From Nemertoderma westbladi (lineage: Eukaryota > Animalia > Xenacoelomorpha), in NCBI GenBank assembly GCA_032718475.1, contig JAUCBJ010008887.1, positions 259-64,258 of the forward strand: a stretch of 64,000 nucleotides of DNA, given 5' to 3'. The translations under genes and the position numbers were made by a program. This document shows positions 35,190 to 64,000 of this stretch, piece after piece. The notes under the pieces were generated by a model. The model saw nothing but the letters and a program-made list of their open reading frames with translations. It was not told the DNA's origin and did no database searches. The first letter of the stretch is position 1; each line of letters begins with the position of its first letter.

Positions 35190-35700
35190 TAGGCCGGACT
35201 GTTGTCGGATTGTTGTTGGGTTTGGAGAGATTACTGCGTGTGTAGAGTTTGTCCGATAGAGTGCCAGTTAGTAAGTTGGGGCAGCCATAGCTGTAAGGTC
35301 AATCCCCTCTTAAAGAATAAGTCGTACTACCGTGTTAGAACGCATACTAACTAACCATTTTGGAATCTGCACATACTGTAGTTTATTTAGGCTTGACAGT
35401 ATTCTGCCAACGTTTTGGCCTGTGTTTGTTTGTGTGGTCTATTCAGGTACCGTAATAGTTATTACTCAGATATTTTGTAGGCTGGATTGTTGTCTAGCTA
35501 TTATTAGGTCTGAAGAGATTGCTGCGTGTGTAGAGTTTGTCTGATAAAGTGCCAGTTAGTAAGTTGGGGCAGCCATAGCTGTAAGGTCAATCCCCTCTTA
35601 AAGAATAAGTCGTACTACCGTGTTAGAACGCATACTAACTAACCATTTTGGAATCTGCACATACTGTAGTTTATTTAGGCTTGATGGTAGTCTGCCAGCG
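35190..35700 (+). repeat. ~289-bp tandem duplication in the long 5' leader of element C
   Basis: The block GCGTGTGTAGAGTTTG...TTTATTTAGGCTTGA occurs twice, 289 bp apart. Confidence 0.85.
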
Positions 35701-37049: not shown

Positions 37050-40000
37050 ATGTCTGACACCCAGCAAAACCTGTCAGACAGTCTAATCGATACAACCATC
37101 TGTGACACAGATAGGAGTGTGGAGCGATTAAGAAAGGAGTTCAGCTCACCTCCTACTGAAAGAAAGGTCATCCCTCCAGTAGTAGTATCAGACCCTAAGC
37201 TAATCCAACACCGTAGGTCTATCATCGGCACTCGGGCCCAAGTCAAACGGAACCAGGAAGCAGCTGTCCAACAGCAGCAACATCCTAGTCAAGAAACTTG
37301 TTCCCAGCGATCCGATAGCTCCAGTAGTTCGGATGCTGTAGAGCTGACCCCCGAACGCAGAGTGCAGATGACGGCTACAGCCTACTCGGATCCCCTTCTC
37401 ACCCTTCCTTCCGCAGTGCTAACTACTATATTGATTGCGGTGGAGGAACATCAAGCCGATTGGGCGAGAAGTAAGCGAGCGACCCAAGATAGTTATGCGG
37501 GATACGCCAGGGAAGAATTGATGTCTATTGTCGAGTCACAATGGAACTTTCCCGGACCCGGACTCCCGTTAGATTTGTCCGAAGCTACTTGGGAAGACAT
37601 ACACAGGATGGGAGTGACTAAAGATACAATGGATCCAGCTGTTTGGAAGAGGTCGGCAGCAGGATATGTGCAGGGATTCTTCGGCTCCTTAGAGCGATTA
37701 GAAGAACAACTGTTTCGACAACCCCAAGGACCTCAAGAGCAGGAAGAGCTGCTATATCAAGTACGCGAAAGAACCCTACGCATAAGACTAATCTTGTCAG
37801 CCTTTGAGGAAACTTCCAAAAGAAGACAGGACACGTCGCTGCAGGTTGCTGTCAAGACTTGGTTCCAGCGGGTAAGTCTCAAAGTACAAGAAACTGCCCA
37901 GTGGAAATCCCAGCTGGCTGAGAGACCAACCTATGAAGAACCAACCGATGCCACCCTTTCTCAAGCGGAAAGCGAAGTGACAGCAGAGAGACCGCGAACT
38001 AGAGACGCTATCGACATTTATCTGTCCGACTATCAGCGATTCCTAGGAGACGAAGAGTTGAGGAGACGGCTGTCTGGACTTTCCCCTAATAGTGAAGGAA
38101 CCAAGCTTGTGTTGGACGCAATCGATACTGAGATGATAGCTGCGGACCAAGCTAAATTTGATGAACGTCTCAGCATAGCTAGAGCTCAAGAAGAACAAGT
38201 AAAGAAAAGGCGGATTGAAGACAAAAAGGCAGCAGCAATAGCAGCGGCAATGGCAACAGCAGAAGCAGACAGAAAGGCGGAAAGAAAGGCGGCAGAAGCA
38301 GCGGCCGAAGCGGAAATAAAAGCGGCGGAGGCAAAAGCAGAAGCAGACAGAAAGGCGGCAGAAGCAGCGGCCGAAGCGGAAATAAAAGCGGCGGGGGCAA
38401 AAGCAGAAGCAGACAGAAAGGCGGCAGAAGCAGCGGCCGAAGCAGACAGAAAGGCGGAAAGAAGGGCGGCGGAGGCAGTGGCAGAAGCAGAACGGAGAGC
38501 GTCTGAGCAGACCGCCCAGCTGGAGTTAGAAAATCTGCAGGAGACGCAAGACAGCATCGGTAGGCAGTTAACAGACAGTCGAATGCAGATGATGAGTCGA
38601 TCTACTTCCAAACGCCAAGGCTATACATCATCGGAGGAAGGGGATACCACCGATCCTGAAGGTGGAGGAAATCAATCTCGTCTCAGTAGACGTAGAAGAA
38701 CATCTCACCGTCATAAATTGCCTGATTTGCCCCCAGCCGTTAGAAGACATTTAGCTAGCACAACAGTAGGTAGTACAGAACCCACAGACCGAATTATTAC
38801 CGTCAACAGACTCCCTACTATAACAGATGAGCCTGAAATAATTAGGCCTTTTCTCGAAGCCACCCCTTCGGTGCTAGAGACACCTGTACTCCCTGAAACA
38901 AACTCTAAATTCCATTTACACAGTACTACACTGCATGTACCCGGTAGAACAGTCCATGAGAATATCCCTGTCCTGGAAGCTGAGAGAGAAATCAAAGATT
39001 TGTCTCCCGTCGTCCCGCGTCAGCCTGCTACAATGTTGGCGACTCCCGCTTCGGCGGTCGAGTGGGTAGAGGAGGGACGGCGGGGGATGAATCTCCTGCT
39101 CGGACAGATGCAGGAGACTGTCCACCAACTTAAGGGAACAGTAAGGGAAGGTAGGGCCGAATTGCAAGAAGTGCAGCAAAGTATCGCGCTAGAACGCGAC
39201 AAATTAGTCAATATACAAAATGGTATACCAATACCCCCTGTAACATTGTGTCAACCTGTTAGGTCTGAAGTATTACATGCGCAAGGTGTGGAGCCTACAC
39301 GCATCTATACTGCTAGTGAAGTAGAAACTCCTATAGCAAACCCTATTAAGGGTGATTATAAACCTGTTGTTAATGATATTCCCTATAGACCTGATAATGA
39401 TCCGAGAAATTTATATACCGATAATTCGATATTAAATAACACGATGGCCCAAGAAAGCTTTACGCGTCAGATGGCTAGAACAGAAGCCCGCCAAGCGGTC
39501 AAAGTGGGAGAGATCGTCAAATTCAATGGAGATGAGATGAAATGGTTACCTTTCAATGAATATTACAAAGACAGCATACAGAACTCTGTACTATCTAACG
39601 GAGAGAAACTTAGGTTCCTCATCAAGTGCTTGGAAGGACCTCCCAAGTTAATGGCGTTAAAGTTCATTGGACATCCAGAAGGATTAAGACAAGTTTGGGA
39701 TACATTAAACATCAGGTATGGTAACAAGGATAACATAGCTAAGTATTTGTATGCAAAATTAGTAGCCCCCCGAAACTTCCTTAGTAGCGGGATTATAGAG
39801 TTTTCTGATGAGATTCAGGAGATCTGTAGACAATTGGACTGGTTAGGTAAGTTTCATGAATATCAGAGTTCCATGGTTATTGGAGCAGTAGTCTCTACTT
39901 TACCAAAGGGTGGAGTATGTACACGCTGGGACAAGAAAGTGTTGTATATGAATGAGCAGCAACGACGAAGCCCTACCATGGCTGATCTCATGTCCTTCTT

Positions 40001-40697
40001 AGATGGTGAAGTAAAACTACAACTCATCAAGCAGTCCAGAGAAAAAACATCGGAAAATAAGGTAAGTGAGAAACCCGTTTCTAGGAGAAGAGTCACACCG
40101 GTGTGTTACACTGACGACGGCGAAAGCCAAGCTTCTCAAGAAGAGGACAGCGGGAAAGACACTGATAGATCTTACTACGTTGACAAAACCTCAAAAGACG
40201 TAAGTAAATACAAGGCTCGAAACAACGATAGGAGAGAACAGGTTGCCAAGACCCCTCCTCAGTCTCCTAATAGAATGCACCGAAGAAAGCCCGAAGAAAG
40301 AACGAGAGTGCATCAGGTTACCCAAGGTAAAGTGAGTAACATAAAACCTAACTGTGCGCTGTGCGACGGGACCCACCGTTTGAGTGCGTGTGCTGAATTT
40401 CTAAAGAAATCCCTTGTAGACAGACGTGCAGTCGTGTGGGATAAGCGGTTATGCTATAATTGCCTCAGACCAGGACACCAACGGCGAACCTGTTACTCCG
40501 ACGTAAAGTGTGCAAAGTGTGACGCGAAACATCACATCTTGTTACACAGTGAGTTCGAACGAGACAACGCGAGTAAGGTAAGTGAGCCCGAACTACATGT
40601 CCAATTGAGTGATGTAAACGACACTGATCAAGAATCTGAGATGGAAGGATTCTATACTGACGAATATATACCGACGCCAACGAATCCTGTTATCTAA
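37050..40697 (+). CDS. gag: Bel/Pao Gag (long N-terminal extension, Ala/Glu/Lys coiled-coil repeats, capsid-like domain, three Cys-His knuckles)
   Basis: KFNGD..W..F, EKLRFL..CL.G, CALCDGTH....C, CYNCLRPGH....C and CAKCDAKHH.LLH. An apparent 2-bp insertion at ~40665 breaks the gag-pol frame. Confidence 0.9.
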   Translation: MSDTQQNLSDSLIDTTICDTDRSVERLRKEFSSPPTERKVIPPVVVSDPKLIQHRRSIIGTRAQVKRNQEAAVQQQQHPSQETCSQRSDSSSSSDAVELTPERRVQMTATAYSDPLLTLPSAVLTTILIAVEEHQADWARSKRATQDSYAGYAREELMSIVESQWNFPGPGLPLDLSEATWEDIHRMGVTKDTMDPAVWKRSAAGYVQGFFGSLERLEEQLFRQPQGPQEQEELLYQVRERTLRIRLILSAFEETSKRRQDTSLQVAVKTWFQRVSLKVQETAQWKSQLAERPTYEEPTDATLSQAESEVTAERPRTRDAIDIYLSDYQRFLGDEELRRRLSGLSPNSEGTKLVLDAIDTEMIAADQAKFDERLSIARAQEEQVKKRRIEDKKAAAIAAAMATAEADRKAERKAAEAAAEAEIKAAEAKAEADRKAAEAAAEAEIKAAGAKAEADRKAAEAAAEADRKAERRAAEAVAEAERRASEQTAQLELENLQETQDSIGRQLTDSRMQMMSRSTSKRQGYTSSEEGDTTDPEGGGNQSRLSRRRRTSHRHKLPDLPPAVRRHLASTTVGSTEPTDRIITVNRLPTITDEPEIIRPFLEATPSVLETPVLPETNSKFHLHSTTLHVPGRTVHENIPVLEAEREIKDLSPVVPRQPATMLATPASAVEWVEEGRRGMNLLLGQMQETVHQLKGTVREGRAELQEVQQSIALERDKLVNIQNGIPIPPVTLCQPVRSEVLHAQGVEPTRIYTASEVETPIANPIKGDYKPVVNDIPYRPDNDPRNLYTDNSILNNTMAQESFTRQMARTEARQAVKVGEIVKFNGDEMKWLPFNEYYKDSIQNSVLSNGEKLRFLIKCLEGPPKLMALKFIGHPEGLRQVWDTLNIRYGNKDNIAKYLYAKLVAPRNFLSSGIIEFSDEIQEICRQLDWLGKFHEYQSSMVIGAVVSTLPKGGVCTRWDKKVLYMNEQQRRSPTMADLMSFLDGEVKLQLIKQSREKTSENKVSEKPVSRRRVTPVCYTDDGESQASQEEDSGKDTDRSYYVDKTSKDVSKYKARNNDRREQVAKTPPQSPNRMHRRKPEERTRVHQVTQGKVSNIKPNCALCDGTHRLSACAEFLKKSLVDRRAVVWDKRLCYNCLRPGHQRRTCYSDVKCAKCDAKHHILLHSEFERDNASKVSEPELHVQLSDVNDTDQESEMEGFYTDEYIPTPTNPVI

Positions 40698-43600
40698 TCA
40701 ATACCGCGGTGTATCGAGCACTTACTTATGAAAAGGACACCGACAATGAGTTCCCCCCAACTACCTTTAACAGACAACCATCTTGGAAAGCTCCAACTTC
40801 CAACGTAGGAATCAGAGAATTTCCTGTAGTGCAGGCAAGAGTTCACGGTCCTAACAAAAGTTACATAGTGAACGCACTCCTTGACTCCGGCAGCACAGGA
40901 ACATTCATCGATCAAGAACTAGCCGAAGATATCTTTGCTGGACAACCCAAATTCCGGACTAAATTGAATATGTCAGGAATTATGCAGGTTTGGAAATCTA
41001 CCCTAACGGCAGACTACTATGTAGGTGTGTTGTCCACCCCCAGGATAAATTAGGAGCACAAGGTATAAGGTCGGTAAAAATGGTGGCTATAAAGAACTTC
41101 GCTACTACCCAAGCAGACCTTTATAATTGGGACGAGGATGAGAGCATCCAACATCTTAAGATACCTCGATTCCAGACAGATTATCCTGGAGTGCAAATAC
41201 TCATCGGCCAGAACGCGCATGAGGCGCTCGAGACATTGGAGAAACGGCCTGCTCAACCGCAGCCACTGCAAACCTATGCGGTAAGAACTAGAGTAGGTTG
41301 GTACTTTACTGGCCCTTCCCGCAGGACTCTCGAAGAGAGAATGCCACAAGAACGAATATACCAAGTAAACGATTGGGAAGTGGAGAGCAGTGAGGTGGAC
41401 GAACTAACTGAGGGAACACCATACTCCTCAGATAATGACGACATCTACCAACTCTTCGATGAAGAGAACACAATCGACCTACTTACAGAAAACCAAACTT
41501 GGAAAAATCAGGTGAACCTATGTCAACTGATTCGCCCATCGGAACCCATCGCTTACAATGATGAACTAAACGATGAGATAGAGCGCTACAACGCTAGAAC
41601 TCGGGACGAACTAGCCGTACGATTCTTTACTCAAGAACTGGTAGAGCCCAATTCATATGATAAGGCCCTATCGATAGAAGAAGAAAGAGCCAAGCAAATC
41701 CAGGAAACAACTACACGTTTTTTAAAGGACCAAGGTAGATATGAAATCGGCCTACCATTTCGAAAACGAGAACCTAGATTTATAAATAACAGACCCTTGG
41801 CAGAGAAAAGAATCGCGCAATTACATCGACGCCTTACGGCTAATGCTTCAGCTAAAGAAATGTACCAAACTCAGCTGAAGAAATTTATAACAAAGGGATA
41901 CGCGGAGCGAGTACCGGAAGGAACACCAGTGACTGAGAGAACGTATTACTTAACACATCATTACGTTCCCAAACCCGGTAAACCCCATGAAGTACAAGTC
42001 GTATTCGATGGCTCCGCGCTATATATGGGCCAATCCCTCAATTCCGAGTTGTTACCAGGACCCAACTTACTCCAATCTTTGTTGGGAATACTTTTAAGAT
42101 TAAGACAATATTCCATCGCGTTCGCCTCCGATATAGAAGGAATGTTCTTACAAGTCAAGGCGCTGGATAGAGATAGAGACAGCCTGAGATTTCTGTGGTG
42201 GCCTGAAGGAGACCTCAATCAGAAACCGGTAGAGTACTGGATGACCATCCAGGCTTTTGGAATCATATCAAGCCCTTCCAACGCCTGCTCCTTGGTGCGA
42301 ACCACTGCGAATGACAACCGAGACTCCTTCTCAAAAGAGGTGATAGACAACATCAAACGTAATATATACATGGACGACAATTTAAGGTCCCTTCCATCAG
42401 TAGAAGAAGCCATAGATGTCGTGAAAGGAACGGTAGAGTGTTTGAAAAGAGGTGGATTTCGACTGACGAAATTCACCAGCAACTCCCGTGAGTTTCTGGA
42501 AGCGATACCGGTAGAAGACCGAGGAGCGAAAGACCTAGACTTAATAAAGGACGATCTTCCTGAAACCAAGACGCTTGGCTTGAAGTGGGACACTGAAAGA
42601 GACATCCTGTTTTTTCAGTTAAAACAGCGAGATAATCCAGTTCGGACCAAACGGATTTGTTTAAGTATCCTGAGCACTTATTTCGACCCATTGGGATTTA
42701 TTAGACCAGTTATATTGATTGCTCGGAGTTTAGTACAACAAATGTGGCTTGAAAACCACTCATGGGACGATTCGCTTAAGGGAGAATTGTTAAAGAAATG
42801 GATGAAATGGGAAGATTCTCTACCTGCCATCGAGAACTTTATAATTTCCCGTGCATATTTTGGCCATGTTCTTCCTACGTATTCCTATCAACTCCATGTG
42901 TTTGGAGACGCCAGCGACATGGGAATAGGTATAGTAGCATATCTGCGAGTCGAAACTCCGGATGGAATCAAAGTCGCCTTGGTTACCTCTAAGGCATTGA
43001 TTAACAACAAGTTAAAGGTTCCTCGAGCGGAGTTAAAGGCGGCTTTATACGCTACAGCCATCGGCCGGAACGTAACGGAACAAATCGACTATCCACTGGA
43101 GAAAACAGTTTATTGGACCGACGCTTTACTCGTATCTAACCAATGAAGTCTGTCAGTTCAGCGTTTTTGTTACTAACAGAGTAGCTATTATTCTTAGTCG
43201 CACAAAGATAGATCAATGGAGACATTGTCCTGGTACGATTAATCCAGCCGATATCGCCTCCAGGGGAGCAACTCCACAGGAACTGATAGATACTCCAGAT
43301 TGGTTGGGTGGACCCGACTTCCTGAGCAAGGAAGAAGATGAATGGCCTCCTCACCTTACTACGGCAGAGATTAGACAAGCCAAGGGAGCGGAGACAGTCA
43401 AACCTAAAACCCGGGCGAGTAAATCGAAGCTATTTAAACCGACGATCGATCTATCTGTATTACATACTTCCGGAAATGACGCTTCGGATCCACAATCCCT
43501 CGCCACAAATAAGTCTGTTGTGGAAATTAGAGATAGAGATCGGAATAGAGATGGAAATCTGGAATACCAGACATCTCGCAAGGAATCTCACCCATGCTGC

Positions 43601-45255
43601 AGAGAGCAATGCATCACTACAGTTCCTGGAATCGGCTCTGTAAAGCCGTCACATATTTAAGGAGATGTTTTCATCATCACTACTCCAGGACGAAGACCAT
43701 TAGTGATACCGCTCCATTGACATCTGCGCAAGTTCATGTTATTAAAAATTTACCCAAATATAAAACATCCGACCGGTTTCTAAAGGAGAAAATTAGTTAC
43801 CAGGAGCATGAAGAAACCAATAAGCAGATACTGAGACTCCTGCAATGCTATGAGGATTCCGATAAGTATTTCCTGTTGTTGAGAAATCCGCAGATGCGCT
43901 TAAGGGATCGATTCTCTAGCACAATGATAGATGGGTTAATACGTGTTGGAGGAAGGCTCACCAATGCGCCATTATCCTTTGACACTAAATTCCCCATACT
44001 CATTAGAAATCTTGAAGTACAAATCAAGATTATTGTAGATGTTCACAGCAAACTTTATCATGCTGGTAGAGAACGAGTTCTTAGCGAAATTCGAACTCGC
44101 TATTATTTTGATAAACCCCGTAGAGCTCTGAACCAAGTTCTTAGGAACTGCATACCCTGTAGGAAAGCATTCAGTAGGCCTTTAACACAGCGAGAGGCAG
44201 AATTACCTAGGGAACGAGTAAGCTTCTATGAACCACCTTTTACTAATACTGGTGTAGATTTATTTGGCCCTATTGAAGTATATCGTGCTAGGACTATAGT
44301 CAAGAGATGGTGTGTCATCTTCGTATGCATGACTTGTAGAGCCATCCATCTCGATATGGTGAACGATCTATCTACCAACAGCTTCGTCTTAAGTTTACGC
44401 CGACAGATCGCTCGCTTCGGGACGAGTAATACCATGAGATCGGATAAGGGAACGAACTTCATTGGTGCCAACAACGAAATACAGGCTTACGTGAAGGACT
44501 GGAACCAAAGACAGGTGGACGATCAGCTAAGGATAACAGCGTCTAGCTGGACCTTCAACGCCGCCGACGCCCCTTGGTGGGGAGGAAGTTGGGAGAGATT
44601 AATTAGAAGTGTCAAGACCGCATTTCACTTTATAGTGCCATGCCACGCGTATGTCACCGACGAACTTTTGCGGACGTTAATGGAGGAAATAGCTGCCTAT
44701 CTCAACGAGAGACCGCTTATGCCAGTCTCATCGAGTCCCGATTCCCTGGAAGCGCTAACACCTGCGCACTTCCTACTGAAGAAACCTGTAGCCATGCTCC
44801 CACGATCGGAGATTGCCGACGGAGACGAATACTGCCGTCGAACTTGGCAACTTATGCAGTTGCTATCCCGTAGTTTCGCTGACCATTTCGAGAAACATTA
44901 TCTGCCCACGCTACAACTTCGAACTAAGTGGTTTGCGCAGCAAGAAAACGTCAGCGCCGGAGATATGGTGCTTATTGTAGATTCAGACCTCCCACGTAAA
45001 CGGTGGCAGACAGGTCGTATCATCGAGACTCACATCTCAGATGATGGTTTAGTACGCTCGGTAGAACTCGTCGTCATGCGGCGTAACTTCAAGAAGCCAG
45101 GCATAATCTTTGAGACGCAACAACTCAACCGCCCAGTTGGTCGTTTATGTTTACTGGAAAGAGACAGAGAACTCTCCGGAAACTATGGAAGGCAAGACAC
45201 TCTTCCCACGACCACCTCCCTAATTCCTCAAACATCTAGGGACTCCCCAACATGA
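40661..45255 (+). pseudogene. pol: Bel/Pao pol (protease, RT, RNase H, integrase) with several frameshifts and stops
   Basis: ALLDSGST; VVFDGS, GPNL, DIEGMFLQV, YMDD; LHVFGDAS, PRAEL, WTD; H..H..C..C, GVDLFGP, SDKGTNF, WERL. Confidence 0.94.
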
Positions 45256-46400
45256 TACGTCTGGAGTGGGTGTATGACTATATTGTTTTATCTATTTTAT
45301 TATATTTTTATATGCGAACTTTATTATGTACTTTATTATAATCGTTTTTATTCAATTTTATTTAGTAGAAGGTTATTTTAGATTATTTGGTAGATTAGTG
45401 CAATATATTAGTGTTTATTACGTAATTACATATATATAATATATATTTAGTGTGACGGCGAGAAATAATTTTTCTCTTTCCTTACTGTCCGTATCATATT
45501 ATAAATACGTGACTACAGTAAGATGAAATGTCCGTACTTATTAAAGTACAATAAAGCCCCTACTATATTTAAGTATTATTGGTAGGCAGAGTATTAGGAA
45601 TGCAAAGTTCAGATCCTCGTGTCTCGGCTAAACCAAGCTCTGGGAAGACCTTGGAAACGACTTGCCTCTTCACACTGACATTGCTTCGTGCGATATTGCT
45701 CTTCTACCTTATATTAAATAATACATATAGTAGCGTGATGTCCATATAACAGTAGCGTAAAACGCAAATAAATCTGTTAAACCTTTTGACCATCTGTAAT
45801 TCTAGTCGATTAAGATATCGCGGCACCCACCGATATACTTGAAAGACAAATTCTAGAATCAGTGGTTAACGTCCTCAGACAAGTTCTGGAATAAATCGGT
45901 GCCCATCTTAAATATTAATTTAATATTTATTAAAATCTGTAAAATTCAGATCCATTAACAATTCTAGTCGATTAAGATATCGTAGCACTTACCGATACTC
46001 TTAAAGGACAAATTTCATAGAATTAAGGATCCTATGTCCCCAGACCTGCTCTGGAATCAAATTGTGTCAATTTTAACATCAAATAATAAAATTCACGGGA
46101 ATAAATTTAAATTCATATTTTAAACGAATTTCATAAATTGTCGTTTTGTGCAATTTATAACATTCCCAAAATTCCATTAATTAATAGATCATGGGAGTGG
46201 AGATTCATCCTATTGAGTGTATTAGAGTGCGAGAATCTCCAACATATAGTCAATAGCCGATAAAATTAATAAAATCATACATAAGGAGGATATTGACAAT
46301 TAAAGAATTACTATTAAATAGCATTCCAGATCTGTATGCATGAGAATTACCCTAATTCTACCGCTAGCTTTCCATAATGTCACCATAGCAACAACCACGC

Positions 46401-47656
46401 TAGAATTAGAAGTGAGTTAAAATAACAATAGAAAGCTTACCACAGTGAATAGCATGCCTAATAAATAGCATCTTGATAGTATCTAAGGATACATAATAAT
46501 AACGTGGCATTCTGGAAGGCATCTGCCTAACGGACAAATGGCCCTAATTTGTACAAATTGTGGCAGGAATGTGGAATTTGTGTATTTATAGGTGAATGTT
46601 ACTACTAAAGTGTGTTTACAGTAGCGAGCCGCAATTGTGAAAGTTATCCTACATCTGTATCAAGTACCTCCAGGATATTCGAGCTGTGACGGGATCCAGG
46701 AAGGATCCAGATTTATCCGTTTGTCAGTTCACGCGTCCCCGCCGTGTGTGAAAGATAAAGAGTTTCTGTTGTTCGTTGTATTGCAATGTTCGAGGTATAT
46801 ACAATATAGATATAGATAATGATGACTGGTAATATTGTTGTACACGGAAGGCGGGAGACGGTAACTGAAATCCCGGTACTTCCCTAGCTAAACTATTCTT
46901 ACAGTAGTACCAATAACACTGAGATAACTGAGGTAATATGATTACTGGTTACTGGTTATATTGCACGGTGGCCTTATTGCTCTACTCAATCGGTGCCTTC
47001 CCCCCTCCGATTGGTTGATACCCTTGTTGGCGCCCTTTGGAGTGTCCCGTTCACTCCACCTGTTCTCTCTTGGTTAGGGGTTTGGCCCCTGACCCTTATT
47101 GTGTGGTTCACCTTCCCATTTTGTTGGGGTGGCGCGAGTTGGTTGATTGCCCAATCTCGAGGCCCCCAATATTGCTTATCGGCTTAACTTTTATGGGGTG
47201 TTAGCGGGATTGGATAAGCTAACACTCCCCCCCATGCTATCTTCCCGGTGAGAAGATAGCATCAACCGAAAAGTGCGCTACAATCCCGCTGGATCCCGAT
47301 CTAGCATCGGGTGTGGGGTGGAAATCTTTTCTCTCGGAGTCGGCTTTCCAGGAAGTCGGCTTTTCCTTTCTAGAATTAGAAGCAAGTTAAGAGAACAATA
47401 GAAAGCTTGTCCCATTGCATAGCATAGAGAATACATAGCACACTGTTAGTATCCAAGGATACACAGTAATAACGTGACATTCTGGAATGCACTGACTAAC
47501 GGACAAATGGCCTGTATGTGTACAATTGGTGACAGTTGTGTGGAATTTGTGCGTTTATAGGTGAATGTTACTGCTAAAGTATGTTTACAGTAGCTAGTCG
47601 CAATTGTAAAAGTAGCCCAACTCTCCTATAGAAAGAACCTCAAGTGGATCCAAGCC
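46401..47656 (+). repeat. Diverged ~280-bp direct repeats (46401-46684 and 47371-47656) in the pol-to-extra-ORF spacer; a second ~160-bp repeat pair lies at ~45797 and ~45959
   Basis: Both copies begin TAGAATTAGAAG and share AATAACGTG.CATTCTGGAA, CTAACGGACAAATGG and TTTATAGGTGAATGTTACT. Confidence 0.8.
46685..47352 (-). mobile_element. Inverted truncated 3' fragment of family BD (3' UTR, PPT and LTR 46685-47224) inside element C
   Basis: The reverse complement matches ~7972-8644, including the hairpin and PPT. Confidence 0.92.
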
Positions 47657-47847
47657 TTTGGGACGGACAGTGGAGTGACTTGTGCCGGTTATCGTTGTCG
47701 TGCTGTTGCTACATGTTGGCGTAAACACCGCGACGACGGTACATCGGCGCTGAGAATCCCACTGTCCGGGGGCAAAGAGAAGTAGGCAGCGACGCCCGCT
47801 CGCCTAAATATAAACTCATTTGATATTAATAAACTCAGATAGCAGAT

Positions 47848-49255
47848 ATGACGGAGTTGATAGAAGATGATCTTGGTATTAGGGAGCGATATACTCTACC
47901 TTTACAAGCATTTGTGGATAGCTTAATACGCGGTGAAGCCAATCCAACCATTACGGAGGACGATGGTCGTTATATCGAACCGCCGATATACGAGTCGCTA
48001 TACTCATCGTAATGGTACGTATATGGACTTCCTAACTACCGGCCATCCTATCGATTTACATGATACGGACGATGTAGACACCGAAAGGGAAATGGTTCTA
48101 TTTAAATATCATACCCAGCGGAGTCGTAACGATAAACCGAGAATAGATCACGAAAATTCTATTCGTAACAGACTGGGAAGACGAACCAATATGCCTCTAA
48201 TCTGAGGAGATTCAGCCTATCGCGCCCGGAACAGTGACAACGATTACATCCTAGAATAGTATCAAGGTCCACAGTGTCTCACTGCGTACGATTATCGCCA
48301 TGCCAACTATGTTTCTCGGCAACGTTGTCGGTTATGCGCATCGAGAGACCATGTTACGCCCATGGACACAAACGTCCGCTGTTCCTATTTCCACGAACAA
48401 CCGGCGATGGAAATTTATTGCGCGTATTGCAGACTCAATAACTTGCAAATTTTTGCGGTTTGCCCTCAATTTATGACTCAATGTCACCATTGTCAACTAA
48501 AGGGACACGCCAGTTTCGATTGCCCTTTTAATCGCGATTTGGAAAGCGTAGATGAAATGATCACACTACGTTACATCAGAGCTTGGGAAGCGAACGCTGA
48601 TTTACATTGTGATTCGCGCCATCGCTATTATCCTGGACGCGCTTACGAAGGAGTTTATGTGTTCCATCCTTACCTATTCGCTTCTGTTGAACAGAAATCA
48701 CGCATATCGCGTTACGAACTACTGAAGCGCGTCGGAGAATGTATTTCAACCAAGTTCGTACGCAAATTTGTTAGGAGTGTTAATCCTAGCGACCTTCATT
48801 CCTATAACTTAATCAATTATATCCGTCAGGACCCAGACTATGGAGACTTATTTGTTAACTCACACCCCGAGTTACAGGAAGTATATCGACGGCCTTACGA
48901 ATACCGAGCCCGCGAATGCGAGTTGGAAAGAACCATTAAACCCAGGAAGTTTCTGACTGCCTATGGTCCACCCACGGCTCTCGTTCAGACCACTCGTAAA
49001 GGACCCGTAAGAGCGGCTGTCTTAAAACGCGCTCTCAAAGCCGTTAGACCCCTCTCCCCCGACGTTGATGTCAATCAACCCGGCACTTCGACTGGCGGAT
49101 ACACCGACCATAATCCTACACCCTCTGATGCAATTATATTGCACCCTTCACCCAGGAGTTATAGCCCTCCTTGTAAGGTGGCTCGCCCCAAAGAGAAAAG
49201 GACTCTAGCCAGCTTTAAAAAACTGCGTAAACGCTGTCCGCGCAAGAAAGGCTAA
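47848..49255 (+). pseudogene. Accessory triple zinc-knuckle ORF of element C (5' part disrupted)
   Basis: 48362-49255 is clearly homologous to 124-1344. Upstream homologous codons contain a stop (TAG for W near 48257). A candidate ATG is at 47848. Confidence 0.75.
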
Positions 49256-49333
49256 CTGTTTAGAGTATTTACATATATTAGAAACTGTGATTTTTGTATA
49301 TTTATAAACTTGAATCCCATTTTCTGGGAGCGG

Positions 49334-50128
49334 TGTAAAAGCTTTTGCGGTTATACATGCGGTTATATATTTCCGCAAGGTACCGTTATAGGTGTTTTAA
49401 CGGACATAAAAGTCATTCTTCTATATGCGTGCTTTGGCGGACATGGTAAGGCAAAAAACCCGCAATGCACCAAATACCCTGGCACAGCTTAGCCTTGATG
49501 ATTCAGATTACGACATCTAACAGCTGGTTGCTGACATGGAAACGGCCATTGGACACATGGTTCTTTGTTTAGCTTAACAGCCAATCAGAGCGATTTTTTC
49601 TGTCGATGTGGAGATATTTTGGCCGATCGTGCTAGGAGTGTTCAGTCTTACTGTTTTTCTTGATACTGTTGTGTTGTTTCTATCTAGGCCAGGAACACCG
49701 GCTCTAGAGTCAATTCGTTTTTCATACTTTAGAAGAAACATTAGTAGGCTTAAATTATAGAGCGTATAACTGTTATCATAACATAACAATCAGTGCAACT
49801 CAGTTCAGTCTTACATTATCGGTTCAACATACATTATTATACTGCTATTTACTGTTGTCATATTTTGTATCAGTTGGTTGAATATTATTTGGAGAACATC
49901 TATAAAGAACCCAAATTTCCCAATTTTCTTGATACACTACAGGTTAGAGAGACGGGTTACATATAGCGATTGCGACTTATATTATTGTGGTTTGTAGTGA
50001 ATTTAATGCTATTTGATAAGCACTACATGAGTCAGTTGCTGTTCTCTTTATATATGATCGGCAAATTAGTGAGCAGTATTGTGTGTTACCGGTAGTGAAA
50101 CTGCTAAAGGTCTTCAAAAGCGCGTACA
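49334..50128 (+). repeat. 3' LTR of element C, with an internal ~390-bp deletion
   Basis: The junction CCGGTAGTG|AAACTGCTAAAGG joins positions equivalent to ~34387 and ~34777. Confidence 0.93.
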
Positions 50129-52197: not shown

Positions 52198-53204
52198 TAA
52201 GTGGTGTCATTAAGTGACACCTCTCCCCTTTTATTTATTGGTATTGATTTATTGGTATTTATTTTTATTTAAATAATTGTATTCATTTTACTTTATTTAA
52301 TTGTATTACTTTATTTAATTTATAAATTGATTTCTAATATTAGAATTATCAATAACTCGTTTTATTTATCAATACTTCCTGTCTACCTTATAATCCATTG
52401 GACAAGTTTCAGCTCGCTCCCCATATCTCGCCCTAGGGTATACAGGTCCTTGACTAGTGACTATTGAAGTTAATGTTAGCGAGGGGATTAACTTAAAGCA
52501 TAAAGTTGCATGCAAGCTATCGTCTAGGTTACACATGAATGAACAATTTACAAGGCCGGCCATTTATAGATTCTTTGCTGCTGTGTCAGGATTGGCTATT
52601 TAAGGAGGCCTTTTGGGCCCCAACATTCCAAGTTACTATTAATTAGCCTTGACCAAGAAAACATCCCATTGATTCATTTTAAAGTTTACTGTTTAATTAA
52701 AGAAGGCCCTGTTTTAATACATAAGTTATATGGTATATTATCAATTTATTTAATTTGTTTTTTTTATTTACAGCCCTAATTGTTCTATTATTATTTATGT
52801 TTTATTATATTTGTCAATCTATAACTTGTTAATTTTTATTAATTTTCTATGCATTGAGGTTTTCGTGGGCGCGGTTTCCCTACTCTCGAAACGATCTAAC
52901 CTATAATTAATTACATAAGTCTGTTAGGCATGCTTAATTAACAAATCTCGTTTACCTTTTATCCGTAAAATCTATCAAGCTAAATTGCATACAATTTTTA
53001 TGGGGGGCGAGGTATGAGGCAAGATGTTTGAGACTTATTTAGGCACATTATTACACCATTTTGTACCCTCAATCTACCATTCACTCCCATTCAACCTTTC
53101 GTCCTATCTTTTACTAGACCTCAATGTTTGAAAATATAACCTCAGAATTCTTGTCTGAGGCAGCCCTAAGTCTCGGATTTAAGGCCAGAGGCAGCCCTAA
53201 AAGC

Positions 53205-56200
53205 GTAACCTCCTCACTTGTAACCTCCTCACTTGTAACCTCCTTACTTGTAACCCCGCCCTTACTCGTAACCTCCTCACTTGGAACCTTCTCATTCGTA
53301 ACCCCCTCAGTCGTAGCCTCCTCACTTGTAACATCTTCCCCTTGTGACCCCTCACTCGTAACCTCCTCACTTGTAGCCTCCTCACTTGTAGCCTCCTCAC
53401 TTGTAGCCTCCACACTTGTAACCTCCTCACTTGTAGCCTCCATACTTGTAACCTCCTAACTTGTAGCCTACATACTTGTAACCTCCTCACTTGTAACCTC
53501 CTCCCCCACTTGTAGCCTCCTCACTTGTAGCCTCATCACTTGTAACCTCCTCACTTGTAGCCTCCACACTTGTAACCTCCTCACTTGTAGCCTCCTCACT
53601 TGTAACCTCCTCCCTCACTCGTAACCTCCTCACTTGTAGCCTCCTCACTCGTAACCTCCGCACTTGTAGCCTCCTCACTTGTAACCTCCTCACTTGTAAC
53701 CTCCTCACTCGTAACATCCTCACTTGTAGCCTCCTCACTCGTAACCTCCTCACTTGTAGCCTCCTCACTTGTAACCTCCTCATTTGTAACCTCCTCACTC
53801 GTAACCTCCTCACTTGTAACCTCCTCACTTGTAGCCTCCTCACTTGTAACCTCCTCACTTGTAACCTCCTCACTTGTAACCTCCACATTTCTAACATCCT
53901 CACTTGTAGCCTCCTGACTTGTAACCTCCTCACTCGTAACCTCCTCACTCCTAACCTCCTCACTTGTAGCCTCCTCACTCGTAACCTCCTCACTTGTAGC
54001 CTCCTCACTTGTAACCTCCTCACTTGTAACCTCCTCACTCGTAACCTCCTCACTTGTAGCCTCCTCACTTGTAACCTCCTCACTTGTAACCTCCTCACTC
54101 GTAACATCCTCACTTGTAGCCTCCTCACTCGTAACCTCCTCACTTGTAGCCTCCTCACTTGTAACCTCCTCATTTGTAACCTCCTCACTCGTAACCTCCT
54201 CACTTGTAACCTCCTCACTTGTAGCCTCCACATTTCTAACCTCCTCACTTGTAGCCTCCTGACTTGTAACCTCCTCACTCGTAACCTCCTCACTCCTAAC
54301 CTCCTCACTTGTAGCCTCCACACTCGTAACCTCCACACTTGTAACCTCCTCACTTGTAACCTCCTCCCTCACTCGTAACCTCCTCACTTGTAGCCTCCTC
54401 ACTCGTAACCTCCTCACTTGTAGCCTCCTCACTTGTAACCTCCTCACTTGTAACCTCCTCACTCGTAACATCCTCACTTGTAGCCTCCTCACTCGTAACC
54501 TCCTCACTTGTAGCCTCCTCACTTGTAACCTCCTCACTTGTATCCTCCTCATTTGTAACCTCCTCACTCGTAACCTCCTCACTTGTAACCTCCTCACTTG
54601 TAGCCTCCTCACTTGTAACCTCCTCACTCGTAACCTCCTCACTTGTAGCCTCCTCACTTGTAACCTCCTCACTTGTAGCCTCCTCACTCGTAACCTCCTC
54701 ACTTGTAGCCTCCTCACTTGTAACCTCCTCACTTGTATCCTCCTCATTTGTAACCTCCTCACTCGTAACCTCCTCACTTGTAACCTCCTCACTTGTAGCC
54801 TCCTCACTTGTAGCCTCCTCACTCGTAACCTCCTCACTTGTAGCCTCCACATTTCTAACCTCCTCACTTGTAGCCTCCTGACTTGTAACCTCCTCACTCG
54901 TAACCTCCTCACTCCTAACCTCCTCACTTGTAGCCTCCACACTCGTAACCTCCACACTTGTAACCTCCTCACTTGTAGCCTCCACATTTCTAACCTCCTC
55001 ACTTGTAGCCTCCTGACTTGTAACCTCCTCACTTGTAACCTCCTCACTCCTAACCTCCTCACTTGTAGCCTCCACACTCGTAACCTCCACACTTGTAACC
55101 TCCTCACTTGTAACCTCCTCCCTCACTCGTAACCTCCTCACTTGTAGCCTCCTCACTCGTAACCTCCTCACTTGTAGCCTCCTCACTTGTAACCTCCTCA
55201 CTTGTAACCTCCTCACTCGTAACATCCTCACTTGTAGCCTCCTCACTCGTAACCTCCTCACTTGTAGCCTCCACACTTGTAACCTCCTCACTCGTAACCT
55301 CCTCACTCGTAACATCCTCACTTGTAGCCTCCTCACTCGTAACCTCCTCACTTGTAGCCTCCACACTTGTAACCTCCTCACTCGTAACCTCCTCACTCGT
55401 AACCTCCTCCCTCACTCGTAACCTCCTCACTTGTAGCCTCCTCACTCGTAACCTCCTCACTTGTAGCCTCCTCACTTGTAACCTCCTCACTTGTAACCTC
55501 CTCACTCGTAACCTCCTCACTCCTAACCTCCTCACTTGTAGCCTCCACACTCGTAACCTCCACACTTGTAACCTCCTCACTTGTAACCTCCTCCCTCACT
55601 CGTAACCTCCTCACTTGTAGCCTCCTCACTCGTAACCTCCTCACTTGTAGCCTCCTCACTTGTAACCTCCTCACTTGTAACCTCCTCACTCGTAACATCC
55701 TCACTTGTAGCCTCCTCACTCGTAACCTCCTCACTTGTAGCCTCCACACTTGTAACCTCCTCACTCGTAACCTCCTCACTCGTAACATCCTCACTTGTAG
55801 CCTCCTCACTCGTAACCTCCTCACTTGTAGCCTCCACACTTGTAACCTCCTCACTCGTAACCTCCTCACTCGTAACCTCCTCCCTCACTCGTAACCTCCT
55901 CACTTGTAGCCTCCTCACTCGTAACCTCCTCACTTGTAGCCTCCTCACTTGTAACCTCCTCACTTGTAACCTCCTCACTCGTAACCTCCTCACTTGTAAC
56001 CTCCTCACTTGTAACCTCCTCACTCGTAACCTCCTCACTTGTAACCTCCTCACTCGTAACCTCCTCACTTGTAGCCTCCTCACTTGTAACCTCCTCACTT
56101 GTAACCTCCTCACTCGTAACATCCTCACTTGTAGCCTCCTCACTCGTAACCTCCTCACTTGTAGCCTCCTCACTTGTAACCTCCTCACTTGTATCCTCCT

Positions 56201-57228
56201 CATTTGTAACCTCCTCACTCGTAACCTCCTCACTTGTAACCTCCTCACTTGTAGCCTCCTCACTTGTAGCCTCCTCACTCGTAACCTCCTCACTTGTAGC
56301 CTCCTCACTTGTAACCTCCTCACTTGTAACCTCCTCACTCGTAACATCCTCACTTGTAGCCTCCTCACTCGTAACCTCCTCACTTGTAGCCTCCTCACTT
56401 GTAACCTCCTCACTTGTATCCTCCTCATTTGTAACCTCCTCACTCGTAACCTCCTCACTTGTAACCTCCTCACTTGTAACCTCCTCACTCGTAACCTCCT
56501 CACTTGTAGCCTCCTCACTTGTAACCTCCTCACTTGTAACCTCCTCACTTGTAACCTCCTCACTCGTAACCTCCTCACTTGTAGCCTCCTCACTTGTAAC
56601 CTCCTCACTTGTATCCTCCTCATTTGTAACCTCCTCACTCGTAACCTCCTCACTTGTAACCTCCTCACTTGTAGCCTCCTCACTTGTAACCTCCTCACTT
56701 GTAACCTCCTCACTCGTAACATCCTCACTTGTAGCCTCCTCACTCGTAACCTCCTCACTTGTAGCCTCCTCACTTGTAACCTCCTCACTTGTATCCTCCT
56801 CATTTGTAACCTCCTCACTCGTAACCTCCTCACTTGTAACCTCCTCACTTGTAGCCTCCTCACTTGTAACCTCCTCACTCGTAACCTCCTCACTTGTAGC
56901 CTCCTCACTCGTAACCTCCTCACTTGTAGCCTCCTCACTTGTAACCTCCTCATTTGTAACCTCCTCACTCGTAACCTCCTCGCTTGTAACCTCCTCACTT
57001 GTAGCCTCCTCACTTGTAACCTCCTCACTTGTAACCTCCTCACTTGTAACCTCCACATTTCTAACCTCCTCACTTGTAGCCTCCTGACTTGTAACCTCCT
57101 CACTCGTAACCTCCTCACTCCTAACCTCCTCACTTGTAGCCTCCTCACTTGTAACCTCCTCCCTCACTTGTAACCTCCTCACTCGTAACCTCCTCACTTG
57201 TAACCCCCCTCACTTTAACCTCCTCACC
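53205..57228. repeat. 15-bp minisatellite (CCTCCTCACTTGTAA variants), ~4 kb, with higher-order repeats
   Basis: Continuous 15-mer array with recurring 19-bp variant units. Confidence 0.97.
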
Positions 57229-59138: not shown

Positions 59139-60648
59139 GATTCAACCTGCGGCACCCGGACCCATTAAACTAACGGCACCCGGACCCATTCAACTAACGG
59201 CACCTGGACCCATTCAACTAACGGCACCTAGACCCATTCAACCAACAGCACCCGGACCCATTCAACCAACAGGACCCGGGCCCATTCAACCAGTGGCACC
59301 CGGACCCATTCAACCAGCGGCACCCGGACCCATTCAACCAGCGGCACCCGGACCCATTCAACTAACAGCACCTGGACCGGGACCCATTCAACCAACAGCA
59401 CCCGGACCCATTCAACCAGCGGCACCCGGACCCATTCATCCAGCGGCACCCGGACCCATTCAACCAGCGGCACCCGGACCCATTCATCCAGCGGCACCCG
59501 GATCCATTCAACCAACAGCACCCGGACCCATTCAACTAACGGCACCTGGACCGGGACCCATTTAACCAACAGCACCCGGACCCATTCAACCAGCGGCACC
59601 CGGACCCATTCATCCAGCGGTACCCGGACCCATTCAACCAGCGGTACCTGGACCCATTCAACTAACAGCACCCGGACCCATTCAACTAACGGCACCTGGA
59701 CCGGGACCCATTCAACCAACAGCACCCGGACCCATTCAACCAGCGGCACCCGGACCCATTCATCCAGCGGCACCCGGACCCATTCAACCAGCGGCACCCG
59801 GACCCATTCATCCAGCGGCACCCGGATCCATTCAACCAACAGCACCCGGACCCATTCAACTAACGGCACCTGGACCGGGACCCATTCAACCAACAGCACC
59901 CGGACCCATTCAACCAGCGGCACCCGGACCCATTCAACCAGCGGCACCCGGACCCATTCATCCAGCGGCACCCAGACCCATTCAACCAGCGGCACCCGGA
60001 CCCATTCATCCAGCGGCACCCGGACCCATTCAACCAGCGGCACCCGGACCCATTCATCCAGCAGGACCCGGGTCCATTCAACCAACAGCACCCGGACCCA
60101 TTCAACTGACGGCACCTGGACCGGGACCCATTCAACCAACAGCACCCGGACCCATTCAAACAGCGGCACCCGGACCCATTCATCCAGCGGTACCCGGACC
60201 CATTCAACAGCGGTACCTGGACCCATTCAACCAACAGCACCCGGACCCATTCAACTAACGGCACCTGGACCGGGACCCATTCAACCAACAGCACCCGGAC
60301 CCATTCAACCAGCGGCACCCGGACCCATTCAACCAACAGCACCCGGACCCATTCAACCAGCAGCACCCGGACCCATTCAACCAGCGGCACCCGGACCCAT
60401 TCATCCAGCGGTACCCGGACCCATTCAACCAGCGGTACCTGGACCCATTCAACTAACAGCACCCGGACCCATTCAACTAACGGCACCTGGACCGGGACCC
60501 ATTCAACCAACAGCACCCGGACCCATTCAACCAGCGGCACCCGGACCCATTCAACCAGCGGCACCCGGACCCATTCAACTAACAGCACCCGGACCCATTC
60601 AACCAACAGCACCCGGACCCATTCAACAGCAGCACCCAGACCCATTCA
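59139..60648. repeat. 24-bp minisatellite (CCCGGACCCATTCAACCAGCGGCA variants, with 30-bp variant units)
   Basis: About 60 units; reads PGPIQPAA on the + strand. Confidence 0.97.
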
Positions 60649-62226
60649 AAAAATAGTTATAAAACTACTAGTACTGTGTTACATACATTGCATACATACA
60701 TGGCATACATTTAGTAGGCCTATCAATATTCAATAAGAGGATATTATTGGTCGATTTAAATAAATTTAAGCAAAATAATGCAGTTTTGAAACATTATAAA
60801 ACGACAAATAAATATCAATCGAAATAATTCAGCATGGCAAAAATCATTTAAAACGATCAATAATATCACTCGTATTAAATTATTGAAGATTGATACTAAA
60901 TGTATGCCATGGTATAGTAATATATTATTACATTGTACAGTATACTGTACAGTATAGGACTATTAATAAAATTATTATATTATTAATTATATTGAATTAA
61001 TAATGTTTTAAAGTTTGAATGTATTAAGAATACTTGCAGTTTTCGGGCTAAGAATACCCGCGGGCTAAGAATTCAGCCAACCCGAGTTATTGGTATTTCC
61101 ACCATTTCCACACCCACCATTTAGATTATATGTTTGCGTTGTATATTGGTGTTACACAGGTCTATCGTTTCATGTTGCCTATACAGTAGGTGAATGTTGA
61201 TATCTTATATCCTTTATTCATCATGCATTATTATACAACAGTTTAGATAGTTTTATTTTACATTATCTTTATTGCATTTGGAGACCATCAGGATTCACTA
61301 CAGATGAAAAGTACAAGTAAAAAAATGGCCAACTAAAAATGTTGTGTTTGGTTTGATAATTGAAGGTACAGTAAGTTAAAATAAATCGGCAACATTTGAT
61401 TTTTATCAACACGGTCGAGCAACCAGTAAGTAGTCTGTCAAAAGAAATTCCTTTATACTGTAGTATAATTAATTATAAATATAACAAAATTAATTATAAT
61501 TATAAAAATATAAGGCATATTATCATAGAGTTAGGTTAGATCTTTAGACTTTACATCCATATATTCTTATACGTTGATAAGACTTATAAAATAATTATTG
61601 CTATTGAATAATTATTATTAAGATCAAAATAATATACACCCTTTAGGCCTATTGGCAATTCAAAGAGGCTGCCATTTCAGTTTGAATTAGGATTTCGGAC
61701 CGGCACTCTCGAAATCTGTGGTGAAAATGCTCTGGGAGGCATATATATGGCGCTTGGCAAAAATGCCCGGGGGGGGGGGGGGCATTTCGCCTGTGACACC
61801 GGCCAAAAAATGTAGAGTTTGTATTACAATGGTACGGTAAATAGAATAGGCCTAGAGGAGGAATAAGGCATTTATTAACCACGAAACGGGTTGTATGAAT
61901 TGTACTGTACAATATTAAATCACTCAATAATTCTAAAATGTATCTAAATTAAATAGATAAATATAATTAAAGTAAAATAATAACAAATGTCGGTTATAGT
62001 GATTGTGGGTAGTTACAGTAGGTTAAAATTTTGCGTAATACATTATTGTAGAATAGAAGATTTTCAAGCAAGCCAGCCTGCAACTCGAAGTTCTGGGAAA
62101 CTTGACCTCTCTAAACTGTTCAACTGCGATGGTTGTTCAGCGCTTTTCATTGACAAAGCAGCTTTCAATAATCATGCTGCCCAATGCGAATTAGGTGATC
62201 AATCGAGTGATGGGAATGTTTCGGTG

Positions 62227-62774
62227 TGTTAGCTTATTCAATCCCGCTAACCCAAACCCATAAAGTAGGCCGATAAGCAATATTGGGGGCCACGAAATTG
62301 GGTAATCAATCACTCGTGTCACCCCAACAAAATGGGAAGGAGAAACACACAATGAGGGTCAGGGGCCAAACCCCTAACAGAGAGAGAATAGGTGGAGTGA
62401 ACGGGAACACTCCAAAGGGCGCCAACAAGGGTATCAACCAATCAGAGGGGGGAAAGGCATCGGCTAGGTACAGTAACAAGGCCAACCCGTGCAATATAAC
62501 CAGTTGGCAGTAATCATTTCATTCAGTTATCTCAGTGTTAGTTATTGGTGTTACAGTAGTAATAGTTTAGCTAGGGAAGTACCGGGACTTCAATTACCGT
62601 ATCCCGCCTTCCGTATACAACAACGTATTATCCCATTATCATATCTATATCTATATCTATATACCCAAATATTATATACGACGAACAACACAAACTCTTT
62701 TATCTTTCACACACGGCGGGGACGCGTGAACTGACAAACCGGATAAACCGGGATCCTATCTGGATCCCGTCACA
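62227..62774 (+). repeat. 5' LTR of element D
   Basis: TGTTAGC...GTCACA. The predicted left TSD is CGGTG (62222-62226). Confidence 0.93.
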
Positions 62775-62845
62775 GTAATTGAACCAGAGCTGCCGCCCTA
62801 GCTAGTAAACTCAGTGACTACCAGCCACCAACCTATAGAAGAGAG

Positions 62846-63628
62846 ATGAGTCAGTCGGGAGAGACGACACCGACGCGGACCCCGGACGAAGAACTAACGA
62901 TCCGCGAGGCCGCGACCAGACGGTATAGGCCCACGACGCCGGACCAATCGGTAACGGGTCATCCGGCAGTTCAGGATGAGGGGGGCCGTCTGGAGCCAGA
63001 AGCCGAGTCGAGAGGAAGGGGAGTCGAGTTGAGAGACCGAGAGGGTGAGTCGGAAGGAGAAGGAGACGAGTCGACACGGGACGAGGGTCGACGTACCGAT
63101 GTCGCCGGCCAGCCACAGGCCGAGGGCGACGAACGGCCCACCGAAACGGCGACGGTGGGGCCGACGGTACGACGCCGGACCCGGAGAGACGGAGGAGATG
63201 TCGGTACCGATGTCGCCGGCCAGCCACAGGCCGAGGGCGACGAACGGCCCACCGGAACGGCGACGGTGGGGCCGCCGGTACGACGTCGGACCCGGAGAGA
63301 CGGAAGAGAGGTCGGCGACGAGGACGTCGGGGTTTCTGATCGACTTCGACGGGCCTACAACGCGACCCAGAAACTACTAAAGGAGGCCAAAGAGGGGGCG
63401 AAGATAGACGAGGTGAGACTGAGGAAACGACTAGGTGAGTCGAATAGACACTTTAATTATCTAATGCGCTTCGGGCAAAGAGAACTGGCCAAGGAGAGAG
63501 CGAGAGGGGTTGCCGAGGAACTGTGTGACTTATGGCGGTGTAGGGGTATGGAACCTAGCGTAGTGTACGTAGGGCCATACTTAGTCGATGCCCGGGGAGT
63601 AAAATTAGTGGGTTGGGAGGAGACCTGA
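62846..63628 (+). CDS. Probable N-terminal part of Gag of element D (low complexity, with an internal ~114-bp duplication)
   Basis: First ATG after the 5' LTR and the A/G-rich strand bias typical of family BD. No diagnostic domain is reached within the window. Confidence 0.55.
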   Translation: MSQSGETTPTRTPDEELTIREAATRRYRPTTPDQSVTGHPAVQDEGGRLEPEAESRGRGVELRDREGESEGEGDESTRDEGRRTDVAGQPQAEGDERPTETATVGPTVRRRTRRDGGDVGTDVAGQPQAEGDERPTGTATVGPPVRRRTRRDGREVGDEDVGVSDRLRRAYNATQKLLKEAKEGAKIDEVRLRKRLGESNRHFNYLMRFGQRELAKERARGVAEELCDLWRCRGMEPSVVYVGPYLVDARGVKLVGWEET

Positions 63629-64000
63629 GGAGGGCGAATCCGAGGTTAACCCCGAGGATTCGGCCTCGTCGGTCGGAGGAAGTTCCGGGAGGCGGGGGAA
63701 AGTTAGTAGGACGGGGAGGCGGAGGGAATCCGTCACAACCGATAAGTCTGCTACATCCTCCGTAAAAGAAAGACGGGTGAGAGAGATAAATGCCACGTAC
63801 CATCTCGATCTGATAGAGCAAGGTCAGAGGGAAGTAGAGTAGACGGTTAGAGGAGGGGAGAATGCTGCTAGAGAGGGAAATGGCATTGATTAGAGAAACC
63901 GGAGAGAGGGCCGAAAGGGCCGCGAAAAGCCTTAGGGAGTGTGAGGAAATAGGGAGGAAGGAACAAGAAGAGCGTGAGGCGGAACGTGAGGGAACGTGTA

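Follow-up and report, generated by a model that had tools for sequence, protein, structure and literature searches.

How minus-strand synthesis is primed in the retroelement family BD is the question raised by the right-hand end of the 64,000-nucleotide stretch of Nemertoderma westbladi DNA analysed here (the window), where a 5′ LTR ends with GTCACA at position 62774 and is not followed by TGG. Members of the Belpaoviridae are described in the ICTV profile as tRNA-primed, with an 18-nt site that base-pairs with the 3′ end of tRNA-Arg or tRNA-Gly, and their replication as poorly understood (PMC8742986); a preliminary description of this locus, made by eye, had likewise taken tRNA priming as the rule for Bel/Pao elements. 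On the evidence below we consider it likely, with a probability of about 0.77, that the Bel/Pao element with this 5′ LTR and leader, whose post-LTR site is the complement of a stretch inside its LTR, self-primes minus-strand synthesis.

Table 1. Positions of the BD and family B features in the window.
Feature	Position	Strand	Remarks
BD 5′ LTR	62227–62774	+	548 nt, TGT...ACA; 93% and 86% identical to the other two copies
BD 3′ LTR	8101–8644	+	93% identical to LTR 62227–62774
Third BD LTR (3′ LTR fragment)	46685–47224	−	86% identical to LTR 62227–62774; same polypurine tract before it
3′ part of another BD copy	2578–8644	+	PF05380, PF17921, PF00665
BD promoter-like motifs	62438–62528	+	CCAAT 62438, TATA-like 62493, Inr-like 62523–62528; motif scan
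BD outer LTR arm	62527–62576	+	pairs in register with the leader, in four or five short helices
BD predicted self-primer 3′ end	62589–62597	+	ends in AC; exact complement of 62775–62783
BD predicted R-U5 helix	62598–62724	+	62598–62608 with 62715–62724; stacks directly on primer end
BD U5-terminal hairpin, 8 bp	62749–62769	+	predicted fold; GGATCC stem in 3/3 BD LTR copies
BD primer-binding position	62775–62783	+	without TGG; complementary to LTR arm
BD leader arm of outer duplex	62796–62849	+	ends on gag ATG (62847)
BD gag start	62847–64000	+	ATG 62847; frame broken at 63626–63628
Family B, full length with nested inserts	33614–50128	+	PF03564, PF05380, PF17921, PF18701
Family B LTRs	33614–34807 (5′); 49334–50128 (3′)	+	
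Family B predicted primer arm	34041–34051	+	11 nt, ends in AT; complement of 34808–34818
Family B primer-binding position	34808–34818	+	without TGG

Two Bel/Pao families in the window

By its pol sequence, BD is classed as Bel/Pao (Belpaoviridae). The LTR end at 62774 was set by the two other LTR copies, which agree with it through the terminal ACA and then diverge, and the three copies diverge outside both LTR ends. Since both other copies are preceded by a polypurine tract, they are 3′ LTRs. The BD copy that ends at 8644 contains a Pao RNase H region, an integrase, an extra zinc-knuckle-like ORF region, the polypurine tract and the 3′ LTR, and no other 5′ LTR lies between its pol (Pao RNase H, integrase) and that LTR. 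At the copy starting at 62227, the sole Bel/Pao coding mark is the gag N-terminal motif P-x-D-S-[IVA]-S, which is found at 63651–63668 in a different frame from the gag start and occurs in 27 of 64 Bel/Pao gag regions or loci, compared to 0 of 64 reverse strands. Downstream of 62847 there is neither a Pfam match nor a tblastn match to the outside Bel/Pao loci described below. This motif, taken together with the pol upstream of a 93%-identical LTR, identifies the 62227 copy as a Bel/Pao 5′ end, and the family assignment made in the preliminary description is thereby borne out. At least 120 homologues of BD were listed, mostly PF17921/PF18701. The LTRs have the length (0.2–1.2 kb), the TG...CA ends and the polypurine tract before the 3′ LTR that characterize Bel/Pao elements, and the order LTRs, gag, RT, Pao RNase H, integrase and polypurine tract was found in BD and in the second family, B. 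A motif scan recovered the TATA-like (62493) and Inr-like (62523) motifs previously noted upstream of the LTR arm; both are preserved in all three BD LTR copies, and transcription of BD is predicted to start near 62525.

Family B carries the full Bel/Pao set, namely Peptidase_A17 (RNase H region), an integrase with a DUF5641 tail and a DUF1759 gag, and its integrase is 30% identical to that of BD. A 3′ LTR related to B (77%) lies at 1423–2616, inserted in BD pol. The segment of this LTR that matches the B primer arm differs in several letters, and from this the element is predicted to carry a site with other letters downstream of its 5′ LTR, itself outside the window. In both families an extra cysteine-rich, zinc-knuckle-like ORF is located between integrase and 3′ LTR (5921–7420 and 48260–49255; also 1–1344), the ORFs of BD and B being weakly alike (E 2e-5, 24% over 83 aa). 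An ORF at 8658–9563 abuts the BD 3′ LTR; its nearest Atlas clusters include double-jelly-roll capsid families in 10–17% of members, and with an Atlas score of 0.98 and a recognition below the tool's mark it possibly represents a Polinton-like element. The window further contains two long tandem arrays (53204–57227 and 59140–60649), a Kelch-BTB gene (22611–24413) and an RT ORF (19319–20992).

Pairing between the LTR and the site that follows it

The pairing reported in the preliminary description was confirmed, with small corrections, when the coordinates were recomputed. The first nine nucleotides after the BD LTR (62775–62783) are the exact reverse complement of 62589–62597 inside it, and after 12-nt spacers on both sides 62568–62576 pairs with 62796–62804; 62545–62550 pairs with 62826–62831, and the other helices named there also lie in register. 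One of them had to be shortened: the AGTTTA/TAAACT helix is present in register but overlaps TAGCTAGGG by 2 nt and hence comprises only 4 bp (62564–62567 with 62808–62811). An additional helix (62527–62533 with 62843–62849) spans the gag ATG. When the LTR was dinucleotide-shuffled, 8 of 2000 shuffles had a perfect 9-nt run anchored at the first post-LTR base; none of 300 attained the gapped duplex score of BD at the same anchor. The fold of 62524–62850, which had been proposed as a check, gave z = −3.0, with 0 of 100 shuffled controls as low.

The two parts of this structure behave differently in the predicted folds. The outer helices have pair probabilities of 0.89–0.97 (four helices tested), and the outer duplex, in register up to the gag start codon, was matched by 0 of 100 shuffles. 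The 9-bp primer helix is absent from the minimum-energy structure and has a probability of 0.17; it competes with U5 pairing, and forcing it costs 1.4 kcal/mol. When it is forced, the primer helix, the R-U5 helix and the U5 stems meet in a predicted junction. The R-U5 helix is found in the free and the forced folds alike, and its arms lie within stretches common to all three BD LTR copies. An energy test of the first 20 leader nucleotides did not single out BD (7 of 40 shuffles). We also noticed an alternative U5 pairing, 62590–62597 with 62725–62733, that masks the primer arm if the leader is missing and that would be strengthened by a common G at 62593; judging by the folding model, it is possibly a switch that stops the 3′ LTR copy from competing.

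Family B has the geometry of BD in other letters, its exact 11-nt complement being matched in 4 of 2000 shuffles, and this 11-mer is nearly palindromic. The extended duplex of B was no better than shuffles (168 of 300; 49 of 100 in a second test), and in the predicted fold of 980 nt its primer helix has a probability of 0.0, forcing it at a cost of 6.1 kcal/mol. Upstream of the B primer arm are a strong splice donor at 33724 and a pyrimidine-rich AG at about 33962; from their sequence these could delimit an intron within the LTR that is separate from the primer junction. An intron forming the primer junction itself was rejected for BD and B by split-match and donor tests: in BD the best split was only 5 nt, and no strong donor was found upstream of the arm.

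Seven sequencing runs, none recorded as RNA, were available for following BD across copies; read contigs were aligned over 62440–62940 for four runs and over 62745–62835 for three, the latter set coming from three studies, one of them with thin coverage. In one run, whose RNA status was guessed, only 2 contigs matched BD, at less than 90% likeness. Because the aligned depth drops several-fold across the LTR/leader junction, only leaders near the 62227 copy are represented. In these contigs 62775–62783 is nearly invariant; the one variant of at least 2% (62777 A>G) gives a G-U pair, and no TGG form of the site occurs among the listed read variants. The compensatory changes across copies that the preliminary description had proposed as a check did not appear, as no two-sided change is found among the variants listed: a G at 62593 makes up about 60% of the aligned depth, without a listed C at 62779. 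When 22 of the listed variants were set against the forced structure, 13 fell on unpaired bases, 5 preserved a pair and 4 disrupted one; a further 77 rows lie outside this tally, and the contigs carry no linkage. The third BD LTR has a G in the primer arm, which gives a G-U pair with that copy's site.

Recurrence in Bel/Pao families outside the window

An RT alignment search provided 533 confirmed metagenome loci, the best 80 of which represent 56 families at 85% RT identity, a sample biased towards relatives of the B RT. In 13 of these families the LTR end is fixed by two copies. Tests for a contiguous, unspliced fold-back were mostly negative in the outside families, and this result, together with partial arms located after pyrimidine tracts ending in YAG, led to a splice test in which only GT and AG were required. 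In 12 of the 13 families we found a perfect 10–15-nt complement across one GT-AG junction of the LTR, with the site 0–5 nt after the LTR, each matched by 0–2 of 100 shuffles; the thirteenth, L071, has a contiguous 10-nt arm. The donors of all 12 are GTRAG (10 families) or GTACGT (2 families, a class added after inspection), compared to 31 of the 624 GT sites in the same LTRs. The pyrimidine-rich acceptor of L074 requires one G-U pair. Before the splice test, the outside arms had been read as starting at an Inr (a 9-nt Tf1-like primer). This idea was dropped: the letters are those of a polypyrimidine-YAG acceptor, and the leader match continues upstream of a donor.

A held-out test of 36 other families gave 8 junction matches of 11–15 nt, 7 of which sit 0–6 nt after ACA (background 0.129, P ~4e-6) and the eighth after ATA. 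A relaxed search of 29 loci, run without shuffle control, added two spliced and seven contiguous families and left L041, L044 and L053 without a call. In a blind scan, matches of at least 11 nt were obtained in 24 of 44 families, compared to 43 of 768 shuffles. No start was imposed on the sites, yet GT opens 20 of the 24 and AT opens 2; the blind-scan match in L053 is probably due to chance. Altogether, 30 of the 56 outside families were called (9 of them by the relaxed search), each matching its own LTR through its own 10–15 letters: in 22 the match exists only once a predicted GT-AG intron is removed from the LTR, and in 8 it is contiguous, as in BD. Many of the 26 uncalled families apparently have contigs on which the 5′ LTR is largely or wholly missing. 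TGG is found within 0–6 nt of the LTR end in none of the 32 called families (the 30 outside families, BD and B), in agreement with the earlier claim of a lineage that lacks this site, and the primer end is AC or AU in all 32. The sequence, the geometry, the absence of TGG and the recurrence with different letters in 32 families are directly observed. The LTR end and the site are separated by 0–6 mostly T-rich bases in the called families; these bases would enter the cDNA end and need trimming before integration.

In predicted folds, removal of the intron raised the primer-helix probability in 19 of 22 families, lowered it in 2 and left it the same in 1. The long outer duplex of about 70 nt that the preliminary description had made part of the mechanism holds for BD but is not group-wide: it stands out only in BD, L027 and L014 (0, 0 and 2 of 100 shuffles; n = 32), and we rejected it as a general feature. 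In a FastTree integrase tree of 99 rows, 29 of them labelled for the spliced or contiguous state, this state changes 5 times among the labelled rows. BD and B have long branches (1.26 and 0.95) and fall, with unsure placement, outside the 71-row group that holds the called outside loci; the argument therefore transfers to them by shared geometry. L026 and L030 are sister families (support 88), one intron-less and one intron-bearing, whose last 7 primer letters are identical, and on this basis they may serve as a natural pair for intron loss. A search of metagenome contigs with the BD LTR pattern gave 0 matches, and integrase and RT alignment searches of viral contigs gave no relatives.

Alternative explanations, proposed priming route and known systems

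Complementarity alone cannot separate a primer acting in cis from one acting in trans, such as a short RNA from a solo or 3′ LTR ending at the AC, or a transcript 3′ end, with no fold-back or cleavage in cis. The weak cis primer helix in the predicted folds is in keeping with such an element-derived trans primer, and the BD LTR contains neither AATAAA nor ATTAAA, so that its LTR gives no anchor for the transcript 3′ end. However, 25 of the 32 families have a poly(A) hexamer downstream of the primer end and none has one 12–40 nt upstream of it, which favours cleavage over termination, and if the full transcript ended there, presumably no R overlap would be left for the first jump. We therefore regard a trans primer as unlikely, and of the two sources of the primer 3′ end that had been proposed, the 5′ fragment is favoured and the transcript 3′ end disfavoured. 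It is quite unlikely that the duplex is instead structural or regulatory (a translation switch at the gag ATG, or a packaging or dimerisation signal) while something else serves as primer. The stable part of BD is indeed the outer duplex over the ATG, the primer helix being metastable, but only 3 of the 32 families have an outer duplex at or below 2 of 100 shuffles, whereas a short helix 0–6 nt from the LTR end with a GT or AT start is general, and no alternative primer site exists at the LTR end.

The reverse complement of 62777–62785 resembles a tRNA T-loop, which would suit priming by a host tRNA fragment or another small host RNA, the LTR match being incidental. Half-tRNA primers exist in Ty1/copia elements according to the available part of PMC6317226. 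Such a primer is nonetheless very improbable here: the base that the T-loop would require at 62784 is T in about two thirds of the aligned depth, an Rfam search of both strands of 62200–62950 gave 0 matches up to E = 5, and the sites of the 32 families differ, yet each fits the LTR of its own family. ARAGORN found 0 tRNAs in the window and in the 20 of the 80 outside loci that were scanned. A chance match in a single degenerate copy is a further alternative: the 9-bp complementarity is short and was spotted by eye within 64 kb of sequence, and the gag frame of the 62227 copy is broken; yet family B in the same window and 30 outside families show the same geometry, and the site is nearly invariant in read contigs from three studies, one thinly covered. 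This is the least credible of the explanations and is already largely refuted.

The self-primed reading put forward in the preliminary description is thus supported by the lack of TGG in 32 of 32 families and by the fit of each site to its own LTR; priming, the start site, cleavage and, in the intron-bearing families, splicing are inferred steps. The BD transcript would start near 62525, at the Inr-like motif, and its first ~73 nt would fold onto the leader such that C62597 pairs with the first post-LTR base. A cut just after the AC at 62597, beside the R-U5 helix, would then leave a 3′ OH at the LTR boundary, the nuclease most likely being the RNase H of the element, by analogy with Tf1. The reverse transcriptase would extend this primer through U5 and the remaining R and then jump to the 3′ LTR, which would supply all sequence 5′ of the cut. 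Most outside families would obtain their primer end through removal of the LTR intron, BD and B being intron-less forms. Since the 3′ LTR would be the template for the upstream LTR sequence, an intron would persist unless the 3′ copy is also spliced, and this rule would explain the mixture of intron-bearing and intron-less relatives.

With moderate confidence we extend this to a joint reading: a large non-insect Bel/Pao branch would do without tRNA priming, most of its families using a primer that the host spliceosome builds by excising an intron of the 5′ LTR, so that splicing would license reverse transcription; BD and B would be intron-less, and in BD, with the start codon buried in the 70-nt primer duplex, cleavage would be coupled to the switch from translation to replication. 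If true, self-priming would extend to a third LTR superfamily, across many animals, and a splicing-assembled primer would be a new link from host RNA processing to reverse transcription. The splice-built primer makes exact, inexpensive predictions: a read that crosses the junction, and an RNA whose end falls on a specified base. On this reading, intact Bel/Pao elements will also be under-called by annotation tools that insist on a tRNA site.

As the preliminary description had supposed, no earlier report of self-priming in Belpaoviridae was found in our literature search, nor one of a splice-built primer, subscription papers, Repbase reports and supplements being outside its coverage. The accessible parts of PMC3601003, PMC8220671, PMC3286476, PMC2678813 and PMC2774666 hold nothing on Bel/Pao priming, and the main text of three Bel/Pao surveys (PMC3118150, PMC554778, PMC6238403) mentions neither PBS nor tRNA. 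Compared with the ICTV description of Bel/Pao, the 18-nt tRNA-Arg/tRNA-Gly site is lacking in BD, B and the 30 outside families, the membership of which is based on pol; B is longer than the 4.2–10 kb stated there, and BD and B add the cysteine-rich ORF before the 3′ LTR.

Self-priming in the Tf1/sushi group, invoked in the preliminary description as precedent, is documented in the available passages of PMC7175516 and PMC6317226; the latter distinguishes three primer types in LTR elements and assigns self-priming to Tf1/sushi, Tcn1 and TAR. In Tf1, according to the parts available, RNase H cuts after base 11, and the 11 nt at the 5′ end of the transcript serve as primer (PMC7175516, PMC5341516). 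Tf1 and Tf2 of Schizosaccharomyces pombe (Tf1/sushi) resemble BD in that, in these same passages, they have no tRNA site and a post-LTR site complementary to their own LTR RNA, with a Tf1 pairing of ~11 bp similar to the 9 bp of BD and the 11 bp of B. Unlike the 11-nt primer described there, the predicted primers are ~73 nt in BD, with a long outer duplex, and ~130 nt in B, and the primer end of 22 outside families is split by a predicted intron, a feature that does not appear in the Tf1 passages available. For TAR (Houba, Osr-1) among Ty1/copia elements and Tcn1 among chromoviruses, self-priming was likewise predicted from LTR-PBS complementarity alone, but these are plant copia and gypsy lineages, and the accessible part of the source mentions no intron-built primer (PMC6317226). 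Tf1/sushi elements have a Ty3/gypsy chromovirus pol whereas the pol of BD and B is Bel/Pao, another superfamily, so that they are not members. Tf1 reportedly requires a U5-IR-like stem, to judge from the title of a Tf1 paper, and the predicted R-U5 and U5 helices at the BD junction may be compared to it. The complementary feature in BD and B is real, and judged by sequence their mechanism would work like that of Tf1, outside the Tf1/sushi group.
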